A stretch of 29,662 bases of DNA from a virus: the IMG/VR virus record IMGVR_UViG_3300017482_000059; one strand, given 5' to 3'. Position numbers and translations under genes: made by a program. Shown piece by piece: positions 171-29,662 of the stretch; position 1 is the stretch's first letter; each line of letters opens with the position of its first letter. The notes under the pieces were generated by a model that saw only the letters and a program-made list of their open reading frames with translations, had not been told where the DNA came from and ran no database searches.

Positions 171-617
171 TCACCGGTTTTTAGTGAGTTTGTTTAATAA
201 CCCGACCACGGTATTGACCCTTTCGTTGAAGGCGGTAAGGGGGATGAAATAATAAGGAATACCGAACTCCGGATCCTCCTGTGCTATAAGTATTAAGTGA
301 CTTTCACCGCAACCCTCTACTCCCTTTAACCCTTCCACTTCTCCCCTCAACTGTTTTTCGTCGACCTCATTGCCCATCTTGATTTCGAAACCTATACATA
401 TTTCCTTTTTAGAATTCATGACCCTGTAAAAAACGTCTACTCTTTTCCTGTTAGGTAAAAGTTCCTCTTTATTAGAATATATCACTTTCACAATTTTTCT
501 AACCCATTCGTCTTTAATATAGGTCTGTAATATAGTTATGACGAACGTGCTGTCGTGCTCAATTATACTCTCTATAAGGTCGTGTAAGTAAACCAAATTA
601 GAGAAATTGTTGGTCAA
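171..617 (-). CDS. PD-(D/E)XK superfamily nuclease-like protein
   Basis: RVDVF...IGFEIK followed by a QL helix matches the (P)D...(D/E)xK restriction-endonuclease-fold motif; overlaps the parA stop, so probably co-transcribed. Confidence 0.6.
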   Translation of the reverse strand: MTNNFSNLVYLHDLIESIIEHDSTFVITILQTYIKDEWVRKIVKVIYSNKEELLPNRKRVDVFYRVMNSKKEICIGFEIKMGNEVDEKQLRGEVEGLKGVEGCGESHLILIAQEDPEFGIPYYFIPLTAFNERVNTVVGLLNKLTKNR

Positions 618-1554
618 CCCTGACCCTCCTCACGACTTCCTTGGGGATCTCAACAAATACCTTAGAGAAGAACGCGTAGAGGTCTTTTTGGGCCTTATTG
701 TCCACTAAGAACAATTTATCGAATATATCGGAGATAGGGGCCCTCTTTTCGTCCCTCCATATCAAGTCCGATAGGTATTCCTTTCTCGACGAAAGGATGT
801 AGTCCTCCGGGTTGTCCTTATCGGCACCGAAATAAGGAGGATAAATCACGTGGTCTTTGAGTATTGAGTTACTTAATTCTTCTTCTAGAGTTTTGTTATG
901 CTCTTTCAATATCGCAGTAGAATTCTTTCTCACTTTGGTCAGGACAACACCTAATACCCTCGGGTATTTGTAAAGCCCTCCTCCGGGTTTCGGTAATATG
1001 TATTTAGGAAGTGCTTCGGTCAGAAATACCTTCATCGCATGGAAAGCTTCAGGGGTTCCGTCCTCAGGTATTAAGAGGTAATGTGATGCCCTCAAAACCG
1101 GCTTAATTGTTATAGTGTCAGATGGGGCAGTGTCAATAAGGATATAATCGTATTGGTCTCTGTAAAGATCCATCATCCGTAATATGTTCCACTCGGATTG
1201 TATTGGGATATAACCCTCAAACATCAGCTTAAAAATGCTCATATAGGATCCCGGGATCACGTCTATGCCGAACTTAAGACCTCTACCTTCATGATAGAAC
1301 TTTATCCTCATAGGTTCAATAGTCCTCAATAGGGCAAAAGCACTCCTGTCTTTAGAGACATCATCGGACGACTTGAGTATTTTTAACCTGTCCTCTTCGT
1401 TCACGAATATTTGGGTAAGTGACATCTGTGCGTCGAAATCTATTAACAGAACCCTCTTCCCCATTGCACCTAAACCCATCGCTATTACTGCGGTAGTCGT
1501 AGTCTTCCCTACCCCTCCTTTGAAGTTATGAATCGTGATTATTTTAGCCATCAC
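598..1554 (-). CDS. parA: ParA/Soj Walker-type partition ATPase
   Basis: Deviant Walker A KGGVGKTT, LLIDFDAQ, Walker B YILIDTAP; 318 aa; last gene of aspA-parB-parA. Confidence 0.95.
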   Translation of the reverse strand: MMAKIITIHNFKGGVGKTTTTAVIAMGLGAMGKRVLLIDFDAQMSLTQIFVNEEDRLKILKSSDDVSKDRSAFALLRTIEPMRIKFYHEGRGLKFGIDVIPGSYMSIFKLMFEGYIPIQSEWNILRMMDLYRDQYDYILIDTAPSDTITIKPVLRASHYLLIPEDGTPEAFHAMKVFLTEALPKYILPKPGGGLYKYPRVLGVVLTKVRKNSTAILKEHNKTLEEELSNSILKDHVIYPPYFGADKDNPEDYILSSRKEYLSDLIWRDEKRAPISDIFDKLFLVDNKAQKDLYAFFSKVFVEIPKEVVRRVRVDQQFL

Positions 1555-2924
1555 AGCTCCCCCTCTAAGACCTCCTTAGGGAAAACTTCTCCCTTAGGAA
1601 ACAGCCGACAGTACGGTTTTATAAATTCATAGAAAACTTCCTCCCTTTCTTTTTCAGAAAGGCCCGCTCTCTCTAAAATCTTATCAACTGTATTATACCA
1701 TAATAATGAAGCTTGTTTGAATATTGCTTCCATGTTACGCCATATTTCATAGACCTTTTCAGCGTCTTCCGTACTAATTTTCTTCTCGTCTACTAATTCC
1801 TTAACTGAAGGTACCATGTTATAAAACGAGTTTAAATCCGTTTTCGGGATATAGACTTCAACCCTTGTTAGAGGTAACCCGTCCCCTTTTTCTTCCTTTT
1901 CGGGCTTTCGGTGCACCTCCTCGGACTTAATTCGGCTTATCGCTTGAGAAACCGTGACCTCCTTGTCCAATATTTTCCGTAAGAGGTCGTCCCTTTCAAG
2001 GACTTTCCTCCCGTACTTATCGGTTATTAGTTCATTCAGGTCGCTTTCGGGAACCCGTTTATTCAGGTCTAGTAAATTCTTCTTCTTTAACAGCCTGTAT
2101 ATGTCGTAAGCCTTCTCTATGCCTATTTTCCCCTTATTTTTGTCCCCTATATAGTTAACCAACCACGGGGCTTCCTCCTTAACCTTTAAATATTTCTTTA
2201 TAGTTTCTTCATTAATCTCAATATCCGGAACCAGCCTTTTCAGCTCCTCTTTTATCTCTCTGGACTCATGTCTTACAGAAGTCGTTTTGGTGGTGGATCC
2301 GGGGGGCGGTCTGGCCGTCCAATTTGTTTCATTTGAAGTTTCCGAAATTGGAGCTGGGGAGCTCCAATTTGTCTCATTTGAAGTTGAATTATTACTATCA
2401 GAAGCGGTCGAACCGGTTCCACCATTATCGAACAGGTACTTCCGTGTATTACCTTCAGGGTTCGGCCTCTCGTTAGGGAACATATTGGCCAGCTTCGGTA
2501 CCTTTTTATCTCCCACTATAATATAATCACCCATATCTATTACCTGAGGAGATTTCGAGTTCGTCCTGATTTCCTTCTTCATTTCATGAACCTTATCTAT
2601 AAGCATAATAATTTCGTCTTTACTCAACTGTCTCCTCCTTATATTAAGGTTGACTACCATGTCGAGCTCTTCTTCCCTCCCATTAGTCTCATAAATGTCG
2701 ACAGGGATTCTAGACATCCCCAATTCCCTGGCGATCTTCAGCCTCGTATACCCGTCTATTACTTCTTTGTTTGTGTTAACTATAATAGGAAACAGGAAGC
2801 CGTCCTTAATCACCGTCTTTTTTAATTCCTCATATTGGTTATTCGTCGGCATAAGTGACTTGAATTCATTAACTTCCTTTACCTCGTTTACATCGAGTTC
2901 AGTCCTTTTAATGAATTTGGCCAC
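1551..2924 (-). CDS. parB: pNOB8-type ParB: ParB/Srx N-domain, S/T/N/P-rich linker, helical C-domain
   Basis: N-terminal PIIV...IDGYTRLKIARELG ParB motif; 457 aa; lies between aspA and parA with overlapping ends. Confidence 0.9.
   Translation of the reverse strand: MAKFIKRTELDVNEVKEVNEFKSLMPTNNQYEELKKTVIKDGFLFPIIVNTNKEVIDGYTRLKIARELGMSRIPVDIYETNGREEELDMVVNLNIRRRQLSKDEIIMLIDKVHEMKKEIRTNSKSPQVIDMGDYIIVGDKKVPKLANMFPNERPNPEGNTRKYLFDNGGTGSTASDSNNSTSNETNWSSPAPISETSNETNWTARPPPGSTTKTTSVRHESREIKEELKRLVPDIEINEETIKKYLKVKEEAPWLVNYIGDKNKGKIGIEKAYDIYRLLKKKNLLDLNKRVPESDLNELITDKYGRKVLERDDLLRKILDKEVTVSQAISRIKSEEVHRKPEKEEKGDGLPLTRVEVYIPKTDLNSFYNMVPSVKELVDEKKISTEDAEKVYEIWRNMEAIFKQASLLWYNTVDKILERAGLSEKEREEVFYEFIKPYCRLFPKGEVFPKEVLEGEL
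2345..2370. repeat. 26-bp palindrome, copy 1 (inside parB linker)
   Basis: AAATTGGAGCT-GGGG-AGCTCCAATTT; identical to 27537-27562. Confidence 0.95.
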
Positions 2925-3195
2925 CGGGTTTCACCGTTTTTTTCAATTCGTCGACTTCTTTAAAGAACTCGTCCAATAATAGTCTTCCTTTTTCGTTGAT
3001 AACATATTTTCCGTCTTTACTTTCAATGACACCTAACGCCGATAATTTCAAGACGTTAAACCTTACGGTGTGGTAGTGAGCACCTATACCTTTACTTATT
3101 TCCGAGACCGACTTCGGTTCCCCACTTTTATCTAAATACGCCAGGATCTTATAAGCCGGGTACACTTTCGGTAGGTTGTCCCTCACATTCATCAC
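2908..3195 (-). CDS. aspA: AspA-like winged-helix DNA-binding protein
   Basis: 95 aa wHTH (PKSVSEISKGIGAHYHTVRFNVLKLSALGVIESKDGKYVINEKG) directly upstream of parB-parA, the order known from Sulfolobus plasmid pNOB8. Confidence 0.85.
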   Translation of the reverse strand: MMNVRDNLPKVYPAYKILAYLDKSGEPKSVSEISKGIGAHYHTVRFNVLKLSALGVIESKDGKYVINEKGRLLLDEFFKEVDELKKTVKPGGQIH

Positions 3196-5933: not shown

Positions 5934-8465
5934 TCAAAGCTCGCAGGTCTTACAACCACCCGCATAGTTCTCGGCTACTTCGACGAACTCCTTCTCAACC
6001 CTCAAGCCAGAAGGTAAGAGCTTGGACTCCTTCTGTCCTTTCTGAACCTTTTCTTCTCCCTCTTTCGCTTTTTCTTCCTTTACTTCTTTCTCCTTCTTTA
6101 TGCCGAAGTATATCACTTGGTGGCCCTTACTCTTGTCCCTATACACGGTTACGCCTTTAATCCCTAATTTCCACGCCATCATGTAGACCTTTTCAACCGT
6201 TTCTACGGGTTCTTCAGTCCTGAGGTTTATGGTCTTGGAAGTCCCTGAATCGTTCCACTGTTGCCAGCTAGCTTGGTGTAGCAAGTGGAACTCGGGTGAG
6301 ACCTCGTGGGCCGTCCTGAAGAGCCTCCTTATTGTTTTCGGTATATACGGGTTCTCACCTACTGTCCCGGTTTCAGCTACCTTCTCTATTACTTCAGGAG
6401 AATTTAATTCATATACCTTCAAGAATTCCAAGAACAGCGGGTCTATCTCTATGAACTTCCCAACACTGACGTTCCTGATAAAAGCTAATGCGAATAACGG
6501 CTCTATAGATGAAGACGTGCCGGCGATTATCGAAATAGTACCGGTCGGTGCTATGGAGACTACAGTCGCGTTCCTCAGGCCGTACTTTAACCTCTCGTCC
6601 TTGACTTTAGACACATCTATATTTTCCGCTACTTCAGCAATTTCCCTTACGTAATCGGAGACTTTCCCATCAACACCGGCTACCCTTAAAAGTCCGTCTA
6701 ATGGTTTAGCTAACTCGAATATGTCCTTATAAAGTCTGGCGTCATAAGACGGGAAGCTACCTTTTTCTTTCGCTAACCCTATTGACGCCATCACGGCATG
6801 GTAATAGATGAACTTAGCTAATTGGTATGACAAATATACGGCATCAATACTATCATAAGGTATTCCTAACTTAATCAACATCCTGGCTAAACCCATTACA
6901 CCTAACCCTACTTTCCTCGTCCTCTTCGTGGCCTCTTCTATTTGTTTCAACGGGTACCTATTGGCGTCTATCACGTTGTCCAAGAGCCTAATAGCTACCC
7001 TTATTGTATTAGCCAAATCGTCCCAATCAATAGTTGGCTTACCGTTGACCTCCTTGACGAACTTCTCGAGGTTTATTGAGCCCAAATTACAAGATTCCCA
7101 AGGTAGTAAAGGTTCTTCTCCGCACGGGTTAGTCGAGTTTATCTTACCTAAATACCATGTAGGATGTCCTCTATTAATTGTGTCTATGAACAATAAGCCC
7201 GGGTCACCGCTGTCCCATGCCCCTTTTATTATTTCTCCAAAGAGTTTTCTTGCGTTGACCCACTTAACGGTTGCACCTTCTTTTTCAGCAATAATTAAAG
7301 CCTCATCAACCGTTATAATAACGCTTTCATCGAGGTAAACCGAACCTCCCCTCTCCTCTAACTCCCTCAGTATTTCTTCTTGTACCCATCCTTCTTCCAT
7401 ATACCCTCTGGCCTTAGTAATGATGTATTCGTGACTTTTTCCCGCTACCAACGTCTTCCTCGGGTTTATTAAAGGTACATTTTCACCTCTCTCGACCTTC
7501 TCCATAAAGTAGTCGTAAATACCTACGGAAATGTTGAAGTTCTGTAATTGGACATCTTTCAGTTCACCTGTCTTAGACCTTATAAATTCTTCAATATCAG
7601 GGTGCCAGATATGCATTACTCCCATATTAGCTCCCCTCCTTTTACCTCCTTGTTTCACTACGTCAGTACTCACATCGAATACTTTCATGAACGAGACCGG
7701 GCCGGAAGCTACTCCTGCGGTCGAAGCTACTATATCCCCTTTAGGTCTGAGTTCACTGAAGTCGAAGCCGGTACCTCCACCTTGTTGGTGAATTAGTGCC
7801 ATAGCCTTTAAAGCGTCGTAAATACCGTCTCCATCAGGAGCGGTCATCGAATCTTTAATTGGAACCACGAAGCAGGCTGAAAGTACCCCCATCCTAGTAC
7901 CCGCATTCATCAAGGTCGGCGAGTTAGGTAAAAATTTTAGGTCACTCATTATAGAATAAAACTCTTCCTCTATATTCCTTATATCTTCCTCCGACTTACC
8001 ATATTTCCGTTCAACTTCAGCTAAGAACTTCGCGACTCTCCTAAACATCATCTGCGGAGTTTCAATAAACCTTAATGTATTCGGATCCTTGAGGAGGTAC
8101 CTGGACTCCAGAACCTTGAGGGCGTTGTAGCTTAGTAAAAGATCCTTGGGGTCGAAGTCCTTCCACTTACCTTTACCATAAACGTGGTTGTAGATCCTAG
8201 CCAGCACGAACTTCTTAGCGAGCTCGAAGAACCTCGCGTCCTTGACGCCGTTCTCTACGAGGTTCCTCTCGATTATGTCAGCCACAGTCCTAGCCTCGAT
8301 CACCCCGTCCTTGGAGGACTTGGCTATGTCGTTGAATATGTTGTCCGCTATTTCGTCGGGGATGGGAAGCTTGGAGAGTATTTTCTCGGGCTTGAACTCT
8401 TCCCTTCTTCCGTCCCTCTTTATGACCGAGACCTTCCTCAGCTGTACGAGGATAGTGGACTCCAT
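5934..8465 (-). CDS. nrdJ: Class II (adenosylcobalamin-dependent) ribonucleotide reductase with N-terminal ATP cone
   Basis: ATP cone VIKRDG..E.F; [33 protein letters not shown] (thiyl Cys), [17 protein letters not shown]-terminal CKTC. Start likely the ATG at 8465 rather than 8552. Confidence 0.95.
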
Positions 8466-8607
8466 AGTTGATCGGATCCAAATTCCGGGTTTTCGACTAC
8501 AAAAAGGTTTCCGACATGAGTTATGGACGGATCCCCGTAACTCCGACGTCAAAAAACCTGCATGAAAAATATAGAAAAAACATCTCCGTTTTGAGAAACC
8601 TTAACCG

Positions 8608-9240: not shown

Positions 9241-9380
9241 TTACATTTAATCTCTTATTGAAAGTTATACGTATTAAGGTGCGACACCTTCGTTATTAAG
9301 ACGATATCTTGCTGATGTGCATGGAAAACCTTTTTAATGAGCAATACTGCTTGTGTGTCCCCGGTTCTCGTAATTAAAAA
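9241..9380. ncRNA. Putative structured non-coding RNA next to the Nop/IS110-like gene
   Basis: ORF-less; hairpins AAGGTG-cga-CACCTT, AAGA-cgata-TCTT and AGCA-atac-TGCT, each preceded by TTAA(G/TG); TTTAAA box at 9233-9238. Transcription is not shown. Confidence 0.35.
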
Positions 9381-21529: not shown

Positions 21530-22081
21530 TTAAACAAGGTTATTACCCTCGACTAAGAGACTCGAGGATTTGAACTTCGGTACCGTAACTCCTGTTTGTC
21601 CTTGATATTTCCCTTTATACGGGTTCTCCACAGGCGTTAGAGTCCTAGCGAAAATCAAGTGGAGAAACCTGGTTCCCCTCCTTAACTTAATAGGGAACTC
21701 CGAGCCTATCACCTCAATGGTCAGCTGACCCTCGAAGCCCGCGTCCACTATAGTAGGAGGAATAAAGAGACCCAACCTCGCGAAAGAAGACCGTAAATTC
21801 ACGAAAGCTATTACGTCGTTAGGCAATTTTATGTATTCTTCGGTGACCGTTAAAATATGTTCATTCGGATATATCACGAACTCCTCTCCCCTCTCCTTTT
21901 GGAAATAGTTAGGGTCTGGGTTTTCGGGGTCAAATGGTTTTTCAGTTTTCTTAAACCTGGCTATTTCGTTGCCGATCCTTAAGTCTACCCCGTTCTCCCT
22001 TATCGTGTCTTCACTTAGGGGTTTAATCACTATCAACTCCTTTTCCAAATAATATTTCAAGTCTCTGTCTCCCAGGATCAT
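21530..22081 (-). CDS. dcd: dCTP deaminase
   Basis: [48 protein letters not shown]. Confidence 0.95.
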
Positions 22082-23852: not shown

Positions 23853-23929
23853 TTTTATCCACCATTTTTATGTACCATTTTCGGTATTTAAATTTAACTG
23901 GAAAATAAGGCATAAAACTCGGGTACCCT

Positions 23930-24259
23930 TTATCTGGCTGTGCCCGGAAACATTATTATTAAATAACCGTCCAGGTACCTCACGATTACCTCCAGATCCC
24001 TCCCCAGGTAAATCGAATCCGGTTCCACATCGTCAATATCGTCATCCTCATCGTTATCGGCTATCTCAATAAAATTATCACCGTTATACCTCGAATAATA
24101 TATGGACTTTTTCCCATTCGTTATGACTATTTCCTGTACGCCGAAAAATTCTACGTTTTTGACTTCACCTTTTACTTTTATCGTGTTAGTTTCGGGAGAG
24201 TACTCGACCTCGAACCCTTCCTCCTCCAGGACTTCCGCTAACCTTGAGGGGTTCACCAT
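23930..24259 (-). CDS. Small paralog family A protein, acidic, 109 aa
   Basis: LEEEGFEVEYSPETNTIKVKGEV; promoter 24291-24298 and TGACCGAAAATG leader. Confidence 0.8.
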   Translation of the reverse strand: MVNPSRLAEVLEEEGFEVEYSPETNTIKVKGEVKNVEFFGVQEIVITNGKKSIYYSRYNGDNFIEIADNDEDDDIDDVEPDSIYLGRDLEVIVRYLDGYLIIMFPGTAR

Positions 24260-24337
24260 TTTCGGTCAGTGCAAATTGGAAGAAAAGGGGTATAAAAAGT
24301 TTTCGGCACCATATTTACGAGTTCTAAGGGTATAAAA

Positions 24338-24431
24338 TTTAAATATCCGCCCGTTATAATATAATATTGAGAATGGGGAGACTACCGAGAATTTTTCTCA
24401 TTTTCGTAATAAAATTTCGGTTATGAGGAAA
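24338..24431 (+). ncRNA. Orphan promoter + 29-nt core, unit U1
   Basis: TATA 24338-24345; core AATGGGGAGACTACCGAGAATTTTTCTCA at 24372-24400; downstream ATGAGGAAA can pair with TTTTCTCAT. Confidence 0.5.
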
Positions 24432-24547
24432 CCTCTTATTCCTAATAATAAGGACATAAACGGGAAATTTTGACATTATATCCACGAGCTATAGGGCATA
24501 AAAATTTAAATACCCGTTTTTACTACATTATAACCGGGGACAAAAAA

Positions 24548-24898
24548 ATGGCCCAGGTACTCGTGAACCCCAAAACTTATATAAAAAGGGTAAACGTTTT
24601 CCACAACTCTTTAGGTGTTATAGTTAGTGCTGATATATTAAGTAAATCAAGACCGGGTCTGTCGCACTATACCAGAATCATGATAGACCCGAAAACCAGT
24701 GAAATAGTGAAATTGTCCTGTGATTGTGAAGGGTTTACTTTCAGAAAGAAGTGCTGGCACTTATATCTATTAAAAGGGCTTATTCAGACAGACCTAAAAG
24801 AAGAAGTCTTTAAAGAAGAAATAAATTGGTTTAAGGAAAAAATGCTGAGCTGTGAAATAAAATTAGCCCGAATTCGTGATATTGTATACAATGAATGA
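24548..24898 (+). CDS. SWIM zinc-finger protein, 116 aa
   Basis: SCDCEGFTFRKKCWHL (CxC...CxH). Start reassigned from 24470 because the extension reads through the promoter (TATA 24505-24512). Confidence 0.85.
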   Translation: MAQVLVNPKTYIKRVNVFHNSLGVIVSADILSKSRPGLSHYTRIMIDPKTSEIVKLSCDCEGFTFRKKCWHLYLLKGLIQTDLKEEVFKEEINWFKEKMLSCEIKLARIRDIVYNE

Positions 24899-24953
24899 AA
24901 ACGTAAATTGATACCCTTTTTGGCCATTATTTTATACCCGAATGGGGGATAAA

Positions 24954-25062
24954 TTTATATACCCTTTTTACTAATATCATAATAGGGAGACTATCGACCA
25001 TTTTTCTCATTCTTGAGATTAAAATCCAAAGACGAAATTTTTTGCTGTGCATATACCCTATT
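24954..25062 (+). ncRNA. Orphan promoter + 29-nt core, unit U2
   Basis: TATA 24954-24961; core AATAGGGAGACTATCGACCATTTTTCTCA at 24981-25009; the 5' AATAGGG can pair with CCCTATT at 25056-25062. Confidence 0.5.
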
Positions 25063-25207
25063 ATAATAAGGAGATAATGGTTGTAATTTCTATTAGTTTA
25101 AGTGAAATAAAATGGGTATAGTGACTGAAATTATGGCATTATCTATCGTAGAGTTGAGGCATAAAAATTTAAATACCCCTTTCACACTATTATATCTCAG
25201 GACAAAA

Positions 25208-25528
25208 ATGACCGACGTCGCCACTGAAATGATATCCCGAATCAGGTCAGCGTTAGATGAATTTGGAGTACCCTATTCAATTAAAAACGGCTCTATTTAT
25301 ATAAAAGCCGACCTAATCGTAGATTTTCAGGAGTCCAGCTCGTTCATTTCGTTTAGATATATTTCGAGAAACGGTGTGGAAATTGTATTTTCTGTAAACG
25401 TACACGGTGACACGAAATTTATTGAATTAAAGGCACCTGACGGGAAAAGGAAAATATTGCACTTAGGAAGAAACGTTTACTACAATTTACAAGACAAGTA
25501 TATTAAATGTAAATATTTCGAGTATTAG
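25208..25528 (+). CDS. Small paralog family A protein, 106 aa
   Basis: LDEFGVPYSIKNGSIYIKADL; TATA 25168-25175; start reassigned from 25112. Confidence 0.8.
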   Translation: MTDVATEMISRIRSALDEFGVPYSIKNGSIYIKADLIVDFQESSSFISFRYISRNGVEIVFSVNVHGDTKFIELKAPDGKRKILHLGRNVYYNLQDKYIKCKYFEY

Positions 25529-25567
25529 AAATTAGTACTCCTTTTGGCCTTATCGTGGGGTATAAAA

Positions 25568-25685
25568 TTTAAATACCCGTCCGACATATAACTGAATAGG
25601 GGGGCTATCGAATATTTTTCTCATTTTCATGATATTTTTACAACCATGAAAAACCCCTATACCATATATTATAATAATATGGTAT
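25568..25685 (+). ncRNA. Orphan promoter + 29-nt core, unit U3, with nested stems
   Basis: TATA 25568-25575; core at 25595-25623; TTTTCATG/CATGAAAA (25624-31 / 25645-52), ATAGGGG/CCCCTAT, then a perfect 9-bp IR at 25659-25685. Confidence 0.55.
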
Positions 25686-25810
25686 ATGGTCACAATTTAT
25701 TTCGTTGCCGGTAACTAAATTGGGGCTATTTTTATCCTCTATCTTATCGTCTTTATGGGGTATAAGATTTAAATATTTGAACCGACTACTATTATATCGG
25801 GGGTCAGGAA

Positions 25811-26203
25811 ATGGAAGTAGACATTTACGCAGTGGGGTCTCCTTATTTGTGCAAGGACAATGTCCTAATAATTGAAGAACACGGTTACGGGAACATCATA
25901 TTGGAAATCCGAGGCAGTGGAATAAATAAGCCCGGAAAGGAAATTTTAGATAGATATAGATATGAAATACCTTCTGAGGAGTGCAGGCCTTTATTAAGAA
26001 AAGACCTAAAGGAATTGAACATAAGGCTCAAGAAGATAGATTATATATTACTAGATCAGAGAGACGAATATACAATATATGAGGTCACCTATAGAGATTT
26101 AAAGGCTTACATTGTAGAAAATTGGAACGGATATAGTGCCGAATTGAAATTCGAAGTCTTTAAGGAGAAGGACGACGCGGTGTCTTGGGTCTTTTCAAAA
26201 TAA
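25811..26203 (+). CDS. Hypothetical protein, 130 aa
   Basis: Conserved promoter 25768-25775. Confidence 0.8.
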   Translation: MEVDIYAVGSPYLCKDNVLIIEEHGYGNIILEIRGSGINKPGKEILDRYRYEIPSEECRPLLRKDLKELNIRLKKIDYILLDQRDEYTIYEVTYRDLKAYIVENWNGYSAELKFEVFKEKDDAVSWVFSK

Positions 26204-26359
26204 GGTTTTTTACATATCCCTTTATCTCAATAGCGGTATACCTTATATTATTATAATAGGGTTACCGAACCCCTATAATTTTTGGCACCATTGTAAGCCT
26301 GAAAGGGGCATAAAAATTTAAATATTTGAACCGACTACTATTATATCGGGGTACAAAAA

Positions 26360-26695
26360 ATGGAAACCCCGCAAGAGGTCTCCGAATTAATGAGACATCT
26401 GAAAATGGCCGGGTTCAAAGCAAAGCAAAATAATGGAATAATATCAATAAAAGGAAAAATGGATATAGTGTACAAAAAAGATAATGATTTAGATATAGAG
26501 ATAGTATATAGAGATTTGAAGTTAGCATATATGGAAAGAGGAGATAGGACGAAGATAATGCTATTAAAAATCGATAAAATTATAAAAGATACTAAAGAAC
26601 AAAAAATAGTTGATTATTTCATATTGAAAATAATAGAATTCGATAGGAAATTCGAGGTATGGTTCAGTGAAGACAGTTTCAAGATAAGGTACTGA
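26360..26695 (+). CDS. Small paralog family A protein, 111 aa
   Basis: LKMAGFKAKQNNGIISIKGKM; promoter 26317-26324. Confidence 0.8.
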   Translation: METPQEVSELMRHLKMAGFKAKQNNGIISIKGKMDIVYKKDNDLDIEIVYRDLKLAYMERGDRTKIMLLKIDKIIKDTKEQKIVDYFILKIIEFDRKFEVWFSEDSFKIRY

Positions 26696-26777
26696 TTTTT
26701 TCCCTCTATCTTAAGGACATATGGGGCATAAAGATTTAAATACTTGAAGTGTTTACTATTATATCGGGGGCACAAAA

Positions 26778-27248
26778 ATGACCGGTAAAAGGTTGTTAGT
26801 CCTCGACCTCGACGGTACCCTCATGGACTCCCAGAGGAGGTGGGAAGAGTGTCAGAGGTTATACCCCAATAACAAAAAGGAGTTCTGGAATTGCTTCCAG
26901 AGCGAGAGGTTTATGGACTTAGACAGCCCTAAGGAAAATGTGGTCAGTTATGCCAAATCACTAATAAATGAAAATACGGTAACAGTAATCGTTAGCGGGA
27001 GGTCTGAGAAGCAATTGAACAAAACCCAAGAACAATTAAACAAAATAGGGATTATCCCAAATGAGATATACCTAAGGAAGAACGGAGATTTCAGGAAAGA
27101 TTTTCAATTCAAGGGCGAGATAATTAACCAATTAATTCAGAAATATATCCCGGCTGAAGTAATCGTAATCGACGACTCAGATGATGTAATAAACCACATA
27201 TCTCAGAATTACCCGAATATAAAAGTAATCGACTCGAAGAAGTTATAA
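26778..27248 (+). CDS. HAD phosphatase resembling the polynucleotide kinase 3'-phosphatase domain
   Basis: DLDGT motif I, VSGR motif II, R..GDFRKD..FK, IDD motif IV. Confidence 0.85.
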   Translation: MTGKRLLVLDLDGTLMDSQRRWEECQRLYPNNKKEFWNCFQSERFMDLDSPKENVVSYAKSLINENTVTVIVSGRSEKQLNKTQEQLNKIGIIPNEIYLRKNGDFRKDFQFKGEIINQLIQKYIPAEVIVIDDSDDVINHISQNYPNIKVIDSKKL

Positions 27249-27303
27249 TTTTTCGAAAACTTGAACCGTTTCTATTTAAATACTGTGACCGAAAATATTA
27301 ATA

Positions 27304-27416
27304 ATTTTTCTCAGAACAGTAATAATAATCCTATTGGATTTCTTGTTCAGAAATGAGAAAAATATTCCATACCCTCCCCATTTTCAATATATTATAACGC
27401 GAAACTGATATTTAAA
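27304..27416 (-). ncRNA. Orphan promoter + 29-nt core, unit U4, with long hairpin
   Basis: TATA 27409-27416; core at 27354-27382; ATTTTTCTCA (27304-13) / TGAGAAAAAT (27354-63) IR plus GAACA/TGTTC. Confidence 0.55.
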
Positions 27417-27536
27417 TCTTTATGCCCCATAAGTCATAATTATAAGGGATAAACTTCCCTTTAACTAAATGAGTGAATACCTTATATTATAATAATAGGA
27501 ATACAGAGGTCGAATTTTTCTCACTCATATTTGTCA

Positions 27537-27562
27537 AAATTGGAGCTGGGGAGCTCCAATTT
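27537..27562. repeat. 26-bp palindrome, copy 2 (intergenic)
   Basis: Identical to 2345-2370 and in the same orientation; lies just downstream of degenerate core U5 (27494-27523). Confidence 0.95.
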
Positions 27563-27674
27563 CTCTTACGAATTTGAAACAAATAACCCTAAATTTCGAC
27601 ATTATTGTAAGCCGGAAAGGTGCATAAAAATTTAAATACTTGAAATGACTATACTACAACCCGGGGGTCACAAA

Positions 27675-27989
27675 ATGGTGAACCCCGTGAACCAAAAACC
27701 CACGATAAAAATAATGACAATATCTTCGGAAGACGACGGTAATGTTTTCGTACAAGCCGAGATCCAGAGCAGGACAAACCCAAATGAATTTCATATAACT
27801 AAAGTAAAGATAGACGGTGAGAACGGCGAGACAAGTTATGCCTATTGTAATTGTAAAGGGTTCGAATATAGGAAAAGGTGCCATCATGTAGAAGCGTTAA
27901 AGGAATTTATGATCAACAATTATAAGGACAAATTAGCAGAAGCCATTGAGAAAAAGAAAAGACTGGCGAGAGAGGCTTTAGAGTGGTGA
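27675..27989 (+). CDS. SWIM zinc-finger protein, 104 aa, paralog of 24548-24898
   Basis: YCNCKGFEYRKRCHHV; TATA 27631-27638; start reassigned from 27645. Confidence 0.85.
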   Translation: MVNPVNQKPTIKIMTISSEDDGNVFVQAEIQSRTNPNEFHITKVKIDGENGETSYAYCNCKGFEYRKRCHHVEALKEFMINNYKDKLAEAIEKKKRLAREALEW

Positions 27990-28155
27990 TTTTTAATTTT
28001 ATTTGAAACCAAATTTTTAGCTATATCTTTACAGTATTTTTCCAATTCTTGAACAGAAATTATGATGCAGTTTTCGTTTACATGATAAATATTCAATATT
28101 CCTTATCTTTTGTATAATACGTAAATTTCCCCCTTTTGCATTTCTATTACTATCA

Positions 28156-28218
28156 CGCAAAAAATAGTCCGCAGTCTCCCTATTTTTATTATATTATAAC
28201 ATGAAACAAGTATTTAAA
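28156..28218 (-). ncRNA. Orphan promoter + 29-nt core, unit U6
   Basis: TATA 28211-28218; core AATAGGGAGACTGCGGACTATTTTTTGCG at 28156-28184. Confidence 0.45.
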
Positions 28219-28297
28219 TCTTTATGCCCCATTTTAGGGAAGCATAAGGATAGAAAACTTTAAATACCTCTTTTGATATAACTATACTTGACCCCAA

Positions 28298-28570
28298 ATG
28301 GCGGGGAAAACGGTCTGGGCTTGGGAAAAGGTCCATAAGATGGGTCTAATTTTTAAGGAAGACAACATATCCGTAACCATTAAAGAAGACCCCGACTTCC
28401 CCTTTGCGTTTATAGTAAAGGTATACGAAGGTGATGGGCTCGTTTATAAAGATATAATAAAATACGAAGAGGTGGGGGTCAACAACATGAACGAGTTACG
28501 AGAGAAATTAATAGAAACTCTCGAAAAAGTAACGGGGATAAAATATAATGTTGTGAGGACGTTCGGGTAA
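28298..28570 (+). CDS. Hypothetical protein, 90 aa
   Basis: TATA 28259-28266 and TGACCCCAAATG leader. Confidence 0.8.
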   Translation: MAGKTVWAWEKVHKMGLIFKEDNISVTIKEDPDFPFAFIVKVYEGDGLVYKDIIKYEEVGVNNMNELREKLIETLEKVTGIKYNVVRTFG

Positions 28571-28607
28571 AACCATTTTTTAAGGTGTATTGTTTTTATC
28601 CCTAAAT

Positions 28608-28663
28608 TGGGAAAAATCCTCGATAGTCCCCCTATATTATTATATAACAAGGAGGTATATAAA
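28608..28663 (-). ncRNA. Orphan promoter + 29-nt core, unit U7
   Basis: TATA 28656-28663; core TATAGGGGGACTATCGAGGATTTTTCCCA at 28608-28636. Confidence 0.5.
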
Positions 28664-28746
28664 GATTTATCCCCCATCTTATCGTCTTTATGGTGTATAA
28701 AGATTTAAATACCCGTAATGAGTATACTACAACCGGGGGTCACGAA

Positions 28747-29061
28747 ATGACCGTTCAAAACCTCCAGGAATTCCTTAACGCATTAAAGGAATTGGGGATA
28801 AAATATGAGGGTAATGGGGACGGCAGGACGATAACCATTAAGGGAGAATTGGACTCGGTAAACACTATTAATAACCAATTATATATCTCAATAAGGCAGA
28901 AGGAATATGTTATTGAATATGCCGAAATTGATAACAGATATCTATTAGCCGTAATGTTGCCGAATAGCGAAATGAATGTCGAATATTCAATATGTTCAAT
29001 AGAATTTCAGACGAAACCGCATGTCTATTATAAATCGGGACGCCTTTATATAAACTACTGA
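28747..29061 (+). CDS. Small paralog family A protein, 104 aa
   Basis: LKELGIKYEGNGDGRTITIKGEL; TATA 28704-28711; start reassigned from 28690. Confidence 0.8.
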   Translation: MTVQNLQEFLNALKELGIKYEGNGDGRTITIKGELDSVNTINNQLYISIRQKEYVIEYAEIDNRYLLAVMLPNSEMNVEYSICSIEFQTKPHVYYKSGRLYINY

Positions 29062-29128
29062 TTTGATTTTTCCTTAACTAAAAGTTAACCCATATTTCCT
29101 ATATTATAATATAGTGAATATAGTCATA

Positions 29129-29234
29129 ATTTTTCTCATTTTTATGATATTATTTTGGCTGAATTTTGATTACAGTAGTGAGAAAAATATTCGATAGCCC
29201 CCCTATATTATTATATAACAAGGAGGTATATAAA
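29129..29234 (-). ncRNA. Orphan promoter + 29-nt core, unit U8, facing degenerate unit U9
   Basis: TATA 29227-29234; core at 29179-29207 matches U3 at 28 of 29 nt; ATTTTTCTCA (29129-38) / TGAGAAAAAT (29179-88) IR. Confidence 0.55.
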
Positions 29235-29312
29235 TTTTTAGGCATTATGACCACGTAAGAAAAAGGCATAAAAATTTAAATACCTCACCCGCCGTAACTA
29301 TACCTGACCCGC

Positions 29313-29662
29313 ATGGACTCCCGAATACCTAAAGGGGTGAGACCGGTTCTGAACTTCCTCCGCTTTATCAGTTCGTTAAGGGAAATAGGGCTTGAAACCA
29401 CTCATAACGAAGATGATAGGGAAATAAGGGTGAAAGGAAAACTGCGATCTATGGGTTTCAGCGACTTCGGATATAATATAGAAATCGTCTCGAAGGATAT
29501 ATTATTTAATTATTCGGAATATAAAGACCTCACAACGATATCTATATGGAAAATTGAAAATGTAAAACAAATATTATTGAAAAAGATTTGGCTGAGAGGA
29601 AGTTTACGTGTAATGTACGATCAACAATACCTCAGGGTTATATATGGGGAAATAAATGAGAT
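29313..29662 (+). CDS. Small paralog family A protein, truncated by window end
   Basis: MDSRIPKG...LREIGLETTHNEDDREIRVKGKLRSMGFSDFGYIIEI..., open to the end; TATA 29275-29282. Absent from the ORF track. Confidence 0.8.
   Translation, partial: MDSRIPKGVRPVLNFLRFISSLREIGLETTHNEDDREIRVKGKLRSMGFSDFGYNIEIVSKDILFNYSEYKDLTTISIWKIENVKQILLKKIWLRGSLRVMYDQQYLRVIYGEINE

Follow-up and report, generated by a model that had tools for sequence, protein, structure and literature searches.

What are the gene-less, promoter-bearing units that sit between small genes at one end of a hot-spring archaeal mobile element? The window analysed here is a 29,662-nt stretch of DNA (IMG/VR record IMGVR_UViG_3300017482_000059), and its rightmost 5.7 kb form an array of small genes, each with a near-identical promoter made of a transcription factor B recognition element (BRE) and a TATA box. 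Within 24,338-29,234 this promoter also recurs in front of short units of non-coding sequence, for which a preliminary description of the window had proposed a small-RNA system. We read the units, tentatively and with a little less than even confidence, as non-coding mini transcription units whose conserved part, here called M, would act as a sequence-specific transcript-end module on the transcribed strand.

A conserved 45-nt module in promoter-linked units

The conserved part of each unit is a 45-nt module composed of a G-rich start, the box TATCGA-NN-ATTTTTCTCA and a 20-nt tail. Complete units follow the order BRE/TATA promoter, G-rich start GGGRG, (C)TATCGA-NN-ATTTTTCTCA and tail nTTTTGTAATAAAATTACAA. 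When the units are aligned on the core, core positions 0-24 carry about 2 bits of information each, two free positions excepted, the 20-nt tail (nTTTTGTAATAAAATTACAA) carries about 1 bit, and positions elsewhere are near zero. The AAAT(C/T)CA motif that had been noted downstream of the core is present and belongs to this semi-conserved tail.

Searching the window with the 29-nt pattern returned six copies at zero to two mismatches, at 24372, 24981 and 25595 on the plus strand and at 27354, 28608 and 29179 on the minus strand, with a chance expectation of 0.00 in 100 shuffles. The seventh copy, at 28156-28180 (-), had been counted as equally clear; it is real yet diverged, with five mismatches in the 25-nt core and an nhmmer E of 0.003. 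The BRE/TATA upstream of every window copy matches the gene promoters exactly or almost so. Seven promoter-linked units, U1 to U7, and two further sites were delimited as follows.

U1, 24331-24420, plus strand: TATA octamer 24338-24345, spacer of 30 nt, core 24376-24400, tail 24401-24420; nhmmer E 7.6e-14
Degenerate AT palindrome after U1, near 24435-24452
U2, 24946-25029, plus strand: TATA 24954-24961, spacer of 23 nt, core 24985-25009, tail to 25029
AT palindrome after U2, near 25056-25071
U3, 25560-25694, plus strand: TATA 25568-25575, spacer of 23 nt, core 25599-25623, tail to 25643
AT-rich palindrome of U3, near 25660-25694: source of the U3 fold z-score of -4.0
26255 site, 26240-26290, plus strand: AT-rich palindrome and decayed core with a 4-nt insertion
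U4, two-armed, 27289-27423, minus strand: TATA 27409-27416, spacer of 30 nt, core 27354-27378
Interior of U4, 40 nt, 27314-27353, and inverted promoter-less M arm, 27289-27313
27494 site, 27480-27559, plus strand: AT palindrome 27480-27499, M-like copy without promoter 27504-27523, palindrome TTGGAGCTGGGGAGCTCCAA 27540-27559
U5, diverged, 28136-28225, minus strand: TATA 28211-28218, spacer of 30 nt, core 28156-28180 (GGGAGACTGCGGACTATTTTTTGCG)
U6, 28588-28670, minus strand: TATA-like TTTATATA near 28656-28663, spacer of 23 nt, core 28608-28632 (ATTTTTCCCA variant)
U7, two-armed, 29114-29241, minus strand: TATA 29227-29234, spacer of 23 nt, core 29179-29203
Interior of U7, 40 nt, 29139-29178, and inverted M arm, 29114-29138

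Three sites previously listed as degenerate copies are redefined in this list. The one at 29110 is actually the inverted distal arm of U7 (the 29179 unit); at 27494 an AT-rich palindrome precedes an M copy that has no promoter. At 26255 there is indeed a decayed core, although it lacks a canonical upstream TATA and was missed by the profile.

Spacing here means the distance that separates the end of the TATA octamer TTTAAATA and the first G of GGG. U1, U4 and U5 (copies at 24376, 27378 and 28180) have 30 nt, and U2, U3, U6 and U7 (copies at 24985, 25599, 28632 and 29203) have 23 nt. The two classes lying 7 nt apart, as the preliminary description had it, are thus found in the window, but the distance is fixed per subfamily and not family-wide: values of 22, 27-30 and 43-50 nt also occur in related contigs, which makes three classes overall (22-23 nt, 27-30 nt and 43-50 nt), and members of the longest have a small CCCCC/GGGGG hairpin ahead of the core. 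With the usual Sulfolobus TATA-to-start spacing, the start site of a unit would coincide with the core or fall about 7 nt ahead of it. Because the spacing classes vary, and the longest has a hairpin before the core, the exact 5' end may lie elsewhere than at the core.

Units also occur outside the window. A loosened-core scan of metagenome contigs returned 13 contigs, all from hot-spring samples; nine of them (L005-L010, L012, L014 and L015) carry further units, a single contig holding as many as a dozen promoter-driven copies, and the remaining four are CRISPR arrays. Window and contigs together hold 38 distinct promoter-type cores, all G-started, and in 36 of them a TATA box (at most one mismatch) lies 18-55 nt upstream, always in the same orientation. 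The promoter consensus differs per lineage. SWIM, HAD and 'family A' cassette genes are common to the window and the unit-bearing contigs at 35-77% amino acid identity, and gene order is partly syntenic, cassette order otherwise differing. The units are the best conserved sequence of the region across four diverged lineages; in the comparison with L015 they are 79% identical, against 69% for the enclosing syntenic block.

Exact-pattern scans of viral contigs and a first scan of genome contigs gave no match, and a second genome scan gave mostly chance matches, with a single genuine copy, of plasmid type, in Stygiolobus sp. CP850M. Copies in host chromosomes were sought in 201 Sulfolobales genomes and dismissed: the search yielded one orthologous coding-region look-alike in five genomes, which we judged to be a chance match. 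The promoter-driven family was not described in the literature that our search covered, two key older papers lying outside its reach. As a separate observation, four to five units stand back to back with no genes between them at L007 1-1474 and L015 600-1200; the predicted promoter pairs there are alternately divergent and convergent, so that palindromes of about 150 bp would be transcribed from both ends.

Do the units encode anything? The earlier finding that they have no consistent start codon is borne out, as the triplet before GGG is ATG in five of 38 copies and GTG in another five, the others being TGG, ATA, AAT, TAT, GAT and AAA. We therefore considered, and regard as highly improbable, that the units specify leaderless micro-proteins of 16-38 aa of the type xGRLSxIFLIxVIKLQ. 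Such peptides would fit a triplet preceding GGG at the expected transcription start, the 45 nt kept free of insertions and deletions, and the mutual resemblance of the translated peptides. Yet beyond the scarcity of in-frame start codons, the long-spacer subtype (B) has one extra G that shifts the reading frame, third codon positions are conserved like first ones and not relaxed, ATT-TTT-CTC shows no synonymous change in any copy, and stop positions vary. The units were rightly called ORF-less (lacking an open reading frame, ORF): they are gene-less and non-coding, they stand behind full-strength promoters and they are under strong sequence constraint. Because these three properties coincide, a transcribed non-coding product is the natural reading.

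Context, terminator signal and paired arms

By context, 44 distinct copies of TATCGA-NN-ATTTTTCTCA divide as follows. Behind a promoter, and with the GGGRG start, lie 33 of the 44; nine have neither promoter nor GGGRG and lie 13-66 nt past a same-strand stop codon. The promoter-less forms comprise the distal arms of units and the single copy carried by Sulfolobales conjugative plasmids, described below. Almost all copies, 42 of the 44, keep one orientation of M towards incoming transcription. In the window, the M arm of U4 lies 57 nt past the stop of the plus-strand HAD gene (26778-27248) and that of U7 lies 69 nt past the stop of the gene at 28747-29061, and U6 is directed into the 3' end of the gene at 28298-28570. 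At the junction of L015 that matches U6 there is no unit.

The box of M holds TTTTTCT, which fits the TTTTTYT signal associated with SSV1 transcript termination in Sulfolobus (PMC9608457, citing Reiter et al. 1988) and lies 16-22 nt from the core start. All six plus-strand TTTTTYT sites within 23900-29662 are M copies, and for four genes in that interval the TTTTTYT of M is the first such signal past the stop. On L009, intergenic regions between convergent genes, about 130 nt long, are made up entirely of one two-armed unit, and therefore the transcript of each gene would meet a T-run on entry. The units thus resemble Sulfolobus terminators in holding TTTTTCT, intact in 33 of the 38 cores, and in the placement of promoter-less copies just past stop codons; they differ in that the known terminators are simple T-rich runs, whereas here 45 nt are conserved and mostly stand behind promoters. 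Because the terminator signal sits inside the core, the primary RNA may be about 20-50 nt long; the transcripts of 30-90 nt proposed earlier would be kept as non-coding products and shortened.

Many units are paired. At least 11 have an inverted copy of the 3' part of the core (TGAGAAAAATTAYCGATA) exactly 40 nt past the core; other units have a gap of 100 or 119 nt, with promoters at both ends that face each other and an AT-rich palindrome in the centre. These central palindromes are irregular. The 40-nt interior consists of two 20-nt tails arranged tail to tail, each of which fits the tail consensus read from its own side.

The preliminary description had noted that several units fold back on a sequence tract, and structural covariation would be the expected trace of a selected RNA structure. 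We found none for any RNA fold. The two arms of a unit are complementary at 9.1 of 15, 9.6 of 10 and 9.7 of 20 positions in three segments, and arms taken from different units are equally so (9.1, 9.5 and 10.6). For the single-armed units, RNAalifold supports an invariant 6-bp stem only, at -2.5 kcal/mol and with no compensatory pairs, and fold z-scores vary in sign, running between +0.2 and -4.8. As raw counts, with no significance test, 50 changes that G-U pairing would tolerate fall on the sense strand and 38 on the antisense strand. Since complementarity is the same within and between units, strand bias is not clear and the one stem is invariant, the pairs are two independent inverted copies of one 45-nt module and not a selected hairpin RNA.

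Known RNA classes were not recognised either. Rfam gave no match at gathering thresholds and chance-level matches only at E up to 10; no Rfam C/D family was matched, and RUGAUGA/CUGA boxes of box C/D small RNAs were not seen in the aligned units. Across 41 Sulfolobaceae genomes, sequence complementary to the first 13 nt at the 5' end is no commoner than the control.

Relation to conjugative plasmids, host defence and the rest of the element

The earlier remark that no described archaeal element of this form was known needs qualifying: the form has relatives, the 3' two-thirds of the unit being homologous to a conserved non-coding segment of plasmids. An nhmmer profile of the 38 units matches pBEU9E1 at 6727-6765 (E 3.6e-6) and the 50-kb element G218 at 15711-15749 (E 5.4e-6), as well as pNOB8 and the plasmid-type contig of Stygiolobus sp. 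CP850M. With a 101-nt query, the segment was found at 78-89% identity in 12 Sulfolobales conjugative plasmids, including pNOB8, pING1, pHVE14, pARN3/4, pAH1, pYN01, pSOG1/2, pMGB1 and pBEU9E1. The consensus of nine plasmids, CTATCGA-NN-TTTTTTCTCA-TTTTTGTAATAAAAATTC followed after about 12 nt by TAAACTCCCCAGTTTAATTTC, agrees with the unit consensus. In the plasmids the segment always lies just past the stop of one conserved ORF, is better conserved than the 3' end of that ORF, and is the best conserved non-coding stretch within the plasmid part that was aligned. Our literature search did not find it described as a functional element, the same two older papers being beyond its reach.

Plasmid segment and unit have in common about 35 homologous nucleotides, CTATCGA-NN-(A/T)TTTTTCTCA-TTTTTGTAATAAAAATT, the orientation to upstream transcription, and a C-rich or palindromic element after about 12 nt. 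The plasmid segment adjoins a motif of the TAAACTGGGGAGTTTA type. In contrast, the plasmid copy is single, promoter-less, without GGGRG and placed behind one ORF, whereas the window has multiple, promoter-driven copies, often in inverted pairs. The conserved ORF of the plasmids is absent from the window, and their setting, a promoter-less single copy behind that ORF, is not found there: seven copies stand behind promoters, and a promoter is lacking only from the distal arms and from the copy at 27504-27523. That copy is followed by the palindrome TTGGAGCTGGGGAGCTCCAA, the same arrangement as M and TAAACTCCCCAGTTTA in the plasmids. A second copy of TTGGAGCTGGGGAGCTCCAA lies inside parB, at 2345-2370 of the window, and this palindrome may be the counterpart of the recurrent plasmid motif. 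We also considered that M might lie inside the putative plasmid origin, for which a TCTATACCCCC motif has been used (PMC4390865), and dropped the idea, as TCTATACCCCC is located elsewhere in pNOB8 and pBEU9E1.

The four array contigs in our scan (L003, L004, L011 and L013) are of CRISPR type, built on the repeat GTTGATCTTGGATAGAATTGAAAG (41-75 repeats) with 210 distinct spacers between them. Among these, two different ones correspond to the core and another to the promoter of the family; further spacers match family genes (the HAD gene), the related contig L001, pNOB8-type plasmids and pBEU9E1. At L009 -7143 the protospacer is preceded by CCC, and CCN is the protospacer adjacent motif (PAM) of Sulfolobus loci (PMC3839810). 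Because host spacers match them, these elements are real invaders of Sulfolobales, and because the same arrays target both, they and the conjugative plasmids have hosts in common. The core has been retained although it is a multi-copy CRISPR target. RNA anti-CRISPRs and solitary repeat units (PMC10651486) are likewise small non-coding units with their own promoter on mobile elements under CRISPR pressure, but the present units lack similarity to the repeat of the arrays that target them (local alignment score of 6 against a shuffle mean of 6.4, for the repeat GTTGATCTTGGATAGAATTGAAAG only).

The preliminary description had also offered the units as partners of a Nop-domain protein encoded at 9383-10438 (-). 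This protein of 351 aa matches NCBIfam TIGR_Tas_endo at E 4.5e-10, below the model cut-off, and weakly matches a chain with an IS110 C-terminal domain in the PDB; a homolog on G218 (L070, about 6200-7826) is 64% identical. Directly downstream of the G218 homolog lies an array of TGCACAYNAGCAA, a 9-nt spacer, TCAATAA and a 9-nt spacer, with a period of 38 and at least 13 units, of which kind about two units remain in the window at roughly 9265-9372. A dual-repeat layout of this type has been described for TIGR (tandem interspaced guide RNA) systems (PMC12045711), and the locus may represent a TIGR-Tas-like system on Sulfolobales plasmid-type elements.

Could the units then be the guide or scaffold RNAs of the Tas-like protein, that is, dispersed and individually promoted stem-loop tigRNAs? 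Beside the protein match itself, their palindromic arms flank a 40-nt interior close to the 36-43 nt of stem-loop tigRNAs, and they share an element with a Tas-like gene, as stem-loop TIGR arrays do (PMC12045711; bioRxiv 10.64898/2026.09.09.750476). However, no box C - 9 nt - box D units came up in the window when both strands were scanned with a simplified TIGRFinder-type procedure, the interior is semi-conserved and does not consist of two variable spacers, and the units do not adjoin the gene but lie 14-19 kb from it. The gene has its own adjacent array, G218 carries the gene with a single promoter-less M copy and no promoter units, and the 9-nt spacers of the remnant in the window have no second perfect match in the units. 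Given this adjacent array, the content of G218, the empty scan and the unmatched spacers, a partnership with the Nop-domain protein is unlikely, and we give hardly any credence to a role of the units as tigRNAs.

As for the element as a whole, a pNOB8-type aspA-parB-parA module occupies 171-3195 (-). Its ParA is 87% identical to pNOB8 ParA and its ParB 38-58% identical, a contrast that suggests module exchange with conjugative plasmids. The window further encodes a ribonucleotide reductase with ATP cone (5934-8552, -), a dCTP deaminase (21530-22081, -), an AcrIII-1/B116-like protein (12687-13046, +; PF08960, E 1.8e-10), a HAD/PNKP-type phosphatase and two SWIM zinc-finger proteins; the reductase, the deaminase and the AcrIII-1/B116-like protein make an unusual nucleotide-metabolism load for a Sulfolobales plasmid-like element. 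No conjugation, recombinase, relaxase or Rep genes were recognised in the window, and megablast found no near-identical records in phage and plasmid collections. On the strength of the par module and gene content, the lack of recognised conjugation genes and the lack of a near-identical record, the window is a plasmid-like or virus-like element of uncultivated Sulfolobales. Its GC skew simply tracks gene direction. A 64-kb relative (G001, IMGVR_UViG_3300027932_000001; ParB 52% identical) has two diverged copies, TGCACTATTTTTCTCA-NN-TTTTGGATAATAT, in the same orientation and 1.3 kb apart at about 25443 and 26775 (-), one of them preceded by a TATA-like box.

How the units may work

If M is a transcript-end module, RNA polymerase would start 0-25 nt before it and mostly stop inside it. 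The product would be a short RNA of about 20-50 nt with a conserved 5' part, which read-through would extend to about 90-150 nt. A tail-to-tail pair of Ms at exactly 40 nt would present a stop to transcription arriving from either side, and the units would punctuate and insulate the cassette array. We find this account the most economical because it covers the fixed orientation, the two contexts of M, the terminator signal and the sharing of M with plasmids. Several observations nevertheless weigh against it. A plain terminator needs no invariant CTCA, TATCGA box or tail, nor a strong promoter 23-50 nt upstream; because the 45 nt and the promoter exceed what termination demands, specific recognition of M by a protein or a short RNA must exist. 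Insulation would account for the arms more readily than for the promoters, U2 and U3 stand in tandem with neighbouring genes where it is not obviously needed, and the T run is shortened in five of the 38 cores.

Two rival readings deserve serious weight. It is possible, though unlikely, that the RNA is itself the functional product, an abundant trans-acting small RNA with stopping as a secondary function. It could serve as a decoy or sponge mimicking the 3'-end module of element and plasmid mRNAs, or as an antisense RNA to convergent read-through, which would be complementary to the unit RNA. The multiple copies behind the same strong promoter as some 20 genes would suit such a role, as would the uniform orientation of the G-started cores behind their TATA boxes (36 of 38) and the persistence of the sequence despite two host spacers and a CCN PAM at L009 -7143. 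What speaks against it is the lack of conserved secondary structure, covariation or an Rfam family, the G-U counts without clear bias, the complements of the 5' half that are not enriched in the 41 genomes, and a 5' end that varies by 0-25 nt among subtypes. Rather unlikely, too, is that M is a double- or single-stranded DNA site for a protein common to these elements and the plasmids, acting in transfer, replication, recombination or cassette exchange, with promoters that would open or activate the site and inverted pairs as two half-sites. Halves that each fit the consensus without covariation behave as repeated protein sites do, and the 40-nt spacing is exact in at least 11 diverged units. 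In every conjugative plasmid examined M is single-copy, conserved and placed beside TAAACTCCCCAGTTTA at the edge of a large ORF-less region, and unit content varies among syntenic relatives, U6 being absent at the L015 junction. A pure DNA site, however, needs no orientation, and that of M to incoming transcription is near-invariant (42 of 44); nor does M lie beside the TCTATACCCCC motif used for the putative origin (PMC4390865), and the window has no recognised recombinase, relaxase or Rep gene. The more specific proposal, that M is the cis-acting DNA-processing site long sought in Sulfolobales conjugative plasmids (a transfer origin or a replication or recombination site) multiplied here, is improbable in our estimate; it draws on M being the best conserved non-coding stretch in the aligned part of the plasmids, on the likeness of the halves to independent protein sites and on the hosts in common. 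A par-bearing family without tra genes would then multiply a promoter-activated M and be mobilised by co-resident conjugative plasmids, or compete with them.

A relic origin, with the units as functionless empty cassettes or decayed 5' gene ends kept alike by recombination between repeats, we hold to be quite improbable. Each unit does join a gene-type promoter to a gene-end-type module, decayed copies exist at 26255 and 28156, and cassette order differs among relatives. But relics would hardly be the best conserved sequence of the region in four diverged lineages, three promoter spacings and differing promoter sequences all lead into the same junction, GGGRGRC-TATCGA, and the sequence is retained despite CRISPR targeting.

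Two known kinds of element invite comparison. Lambda oop RNA and plasmid countertranscripts are short promoter-plus-terminator RNAs, often convergent with a gene 3' end, that pair with a target they overlap and contain conserved stem-loops. The units are alike in being compact and autonomous, with a strong promoter, a short predicted non-coding transcript, a built-in stop and often a convergent position; they differ in that the stop would come before any overlap with a target, no structure is supported and one sequence recurs in all copies. Integron attC sites and repetitive extragenic palindromic (REP) or Correia-type elements are intergenic palindromic repeats, and the units likewise lie, as imperfect inverted repeats about 90-150 bp long, among cassette-like genes in variable copy number. 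Here, in contrast, promoter linkage is obligatory, there is no integrase nearby, the halves match a consensus rather than pair with one another, and no target-site duplications, as left by insertions of miniature inverted-repeat transposable elements, were seen by eye in the aligned units.

A 45-nt sequence conserved beyond any neighbouring gene offers a concrete and clonable handle on non-coding function in archaeal mobile elements. If M is a specialised terminator or insulator, as we tentatively propose, it would be a useful part for Sulfolobus genetics and would show how cassette arrays stay transcriptionally separate. If instead it makes a small RNA or marks a DNA-processing site, it would bear on archaeal conjugation, plasmid competition and anti-defence.

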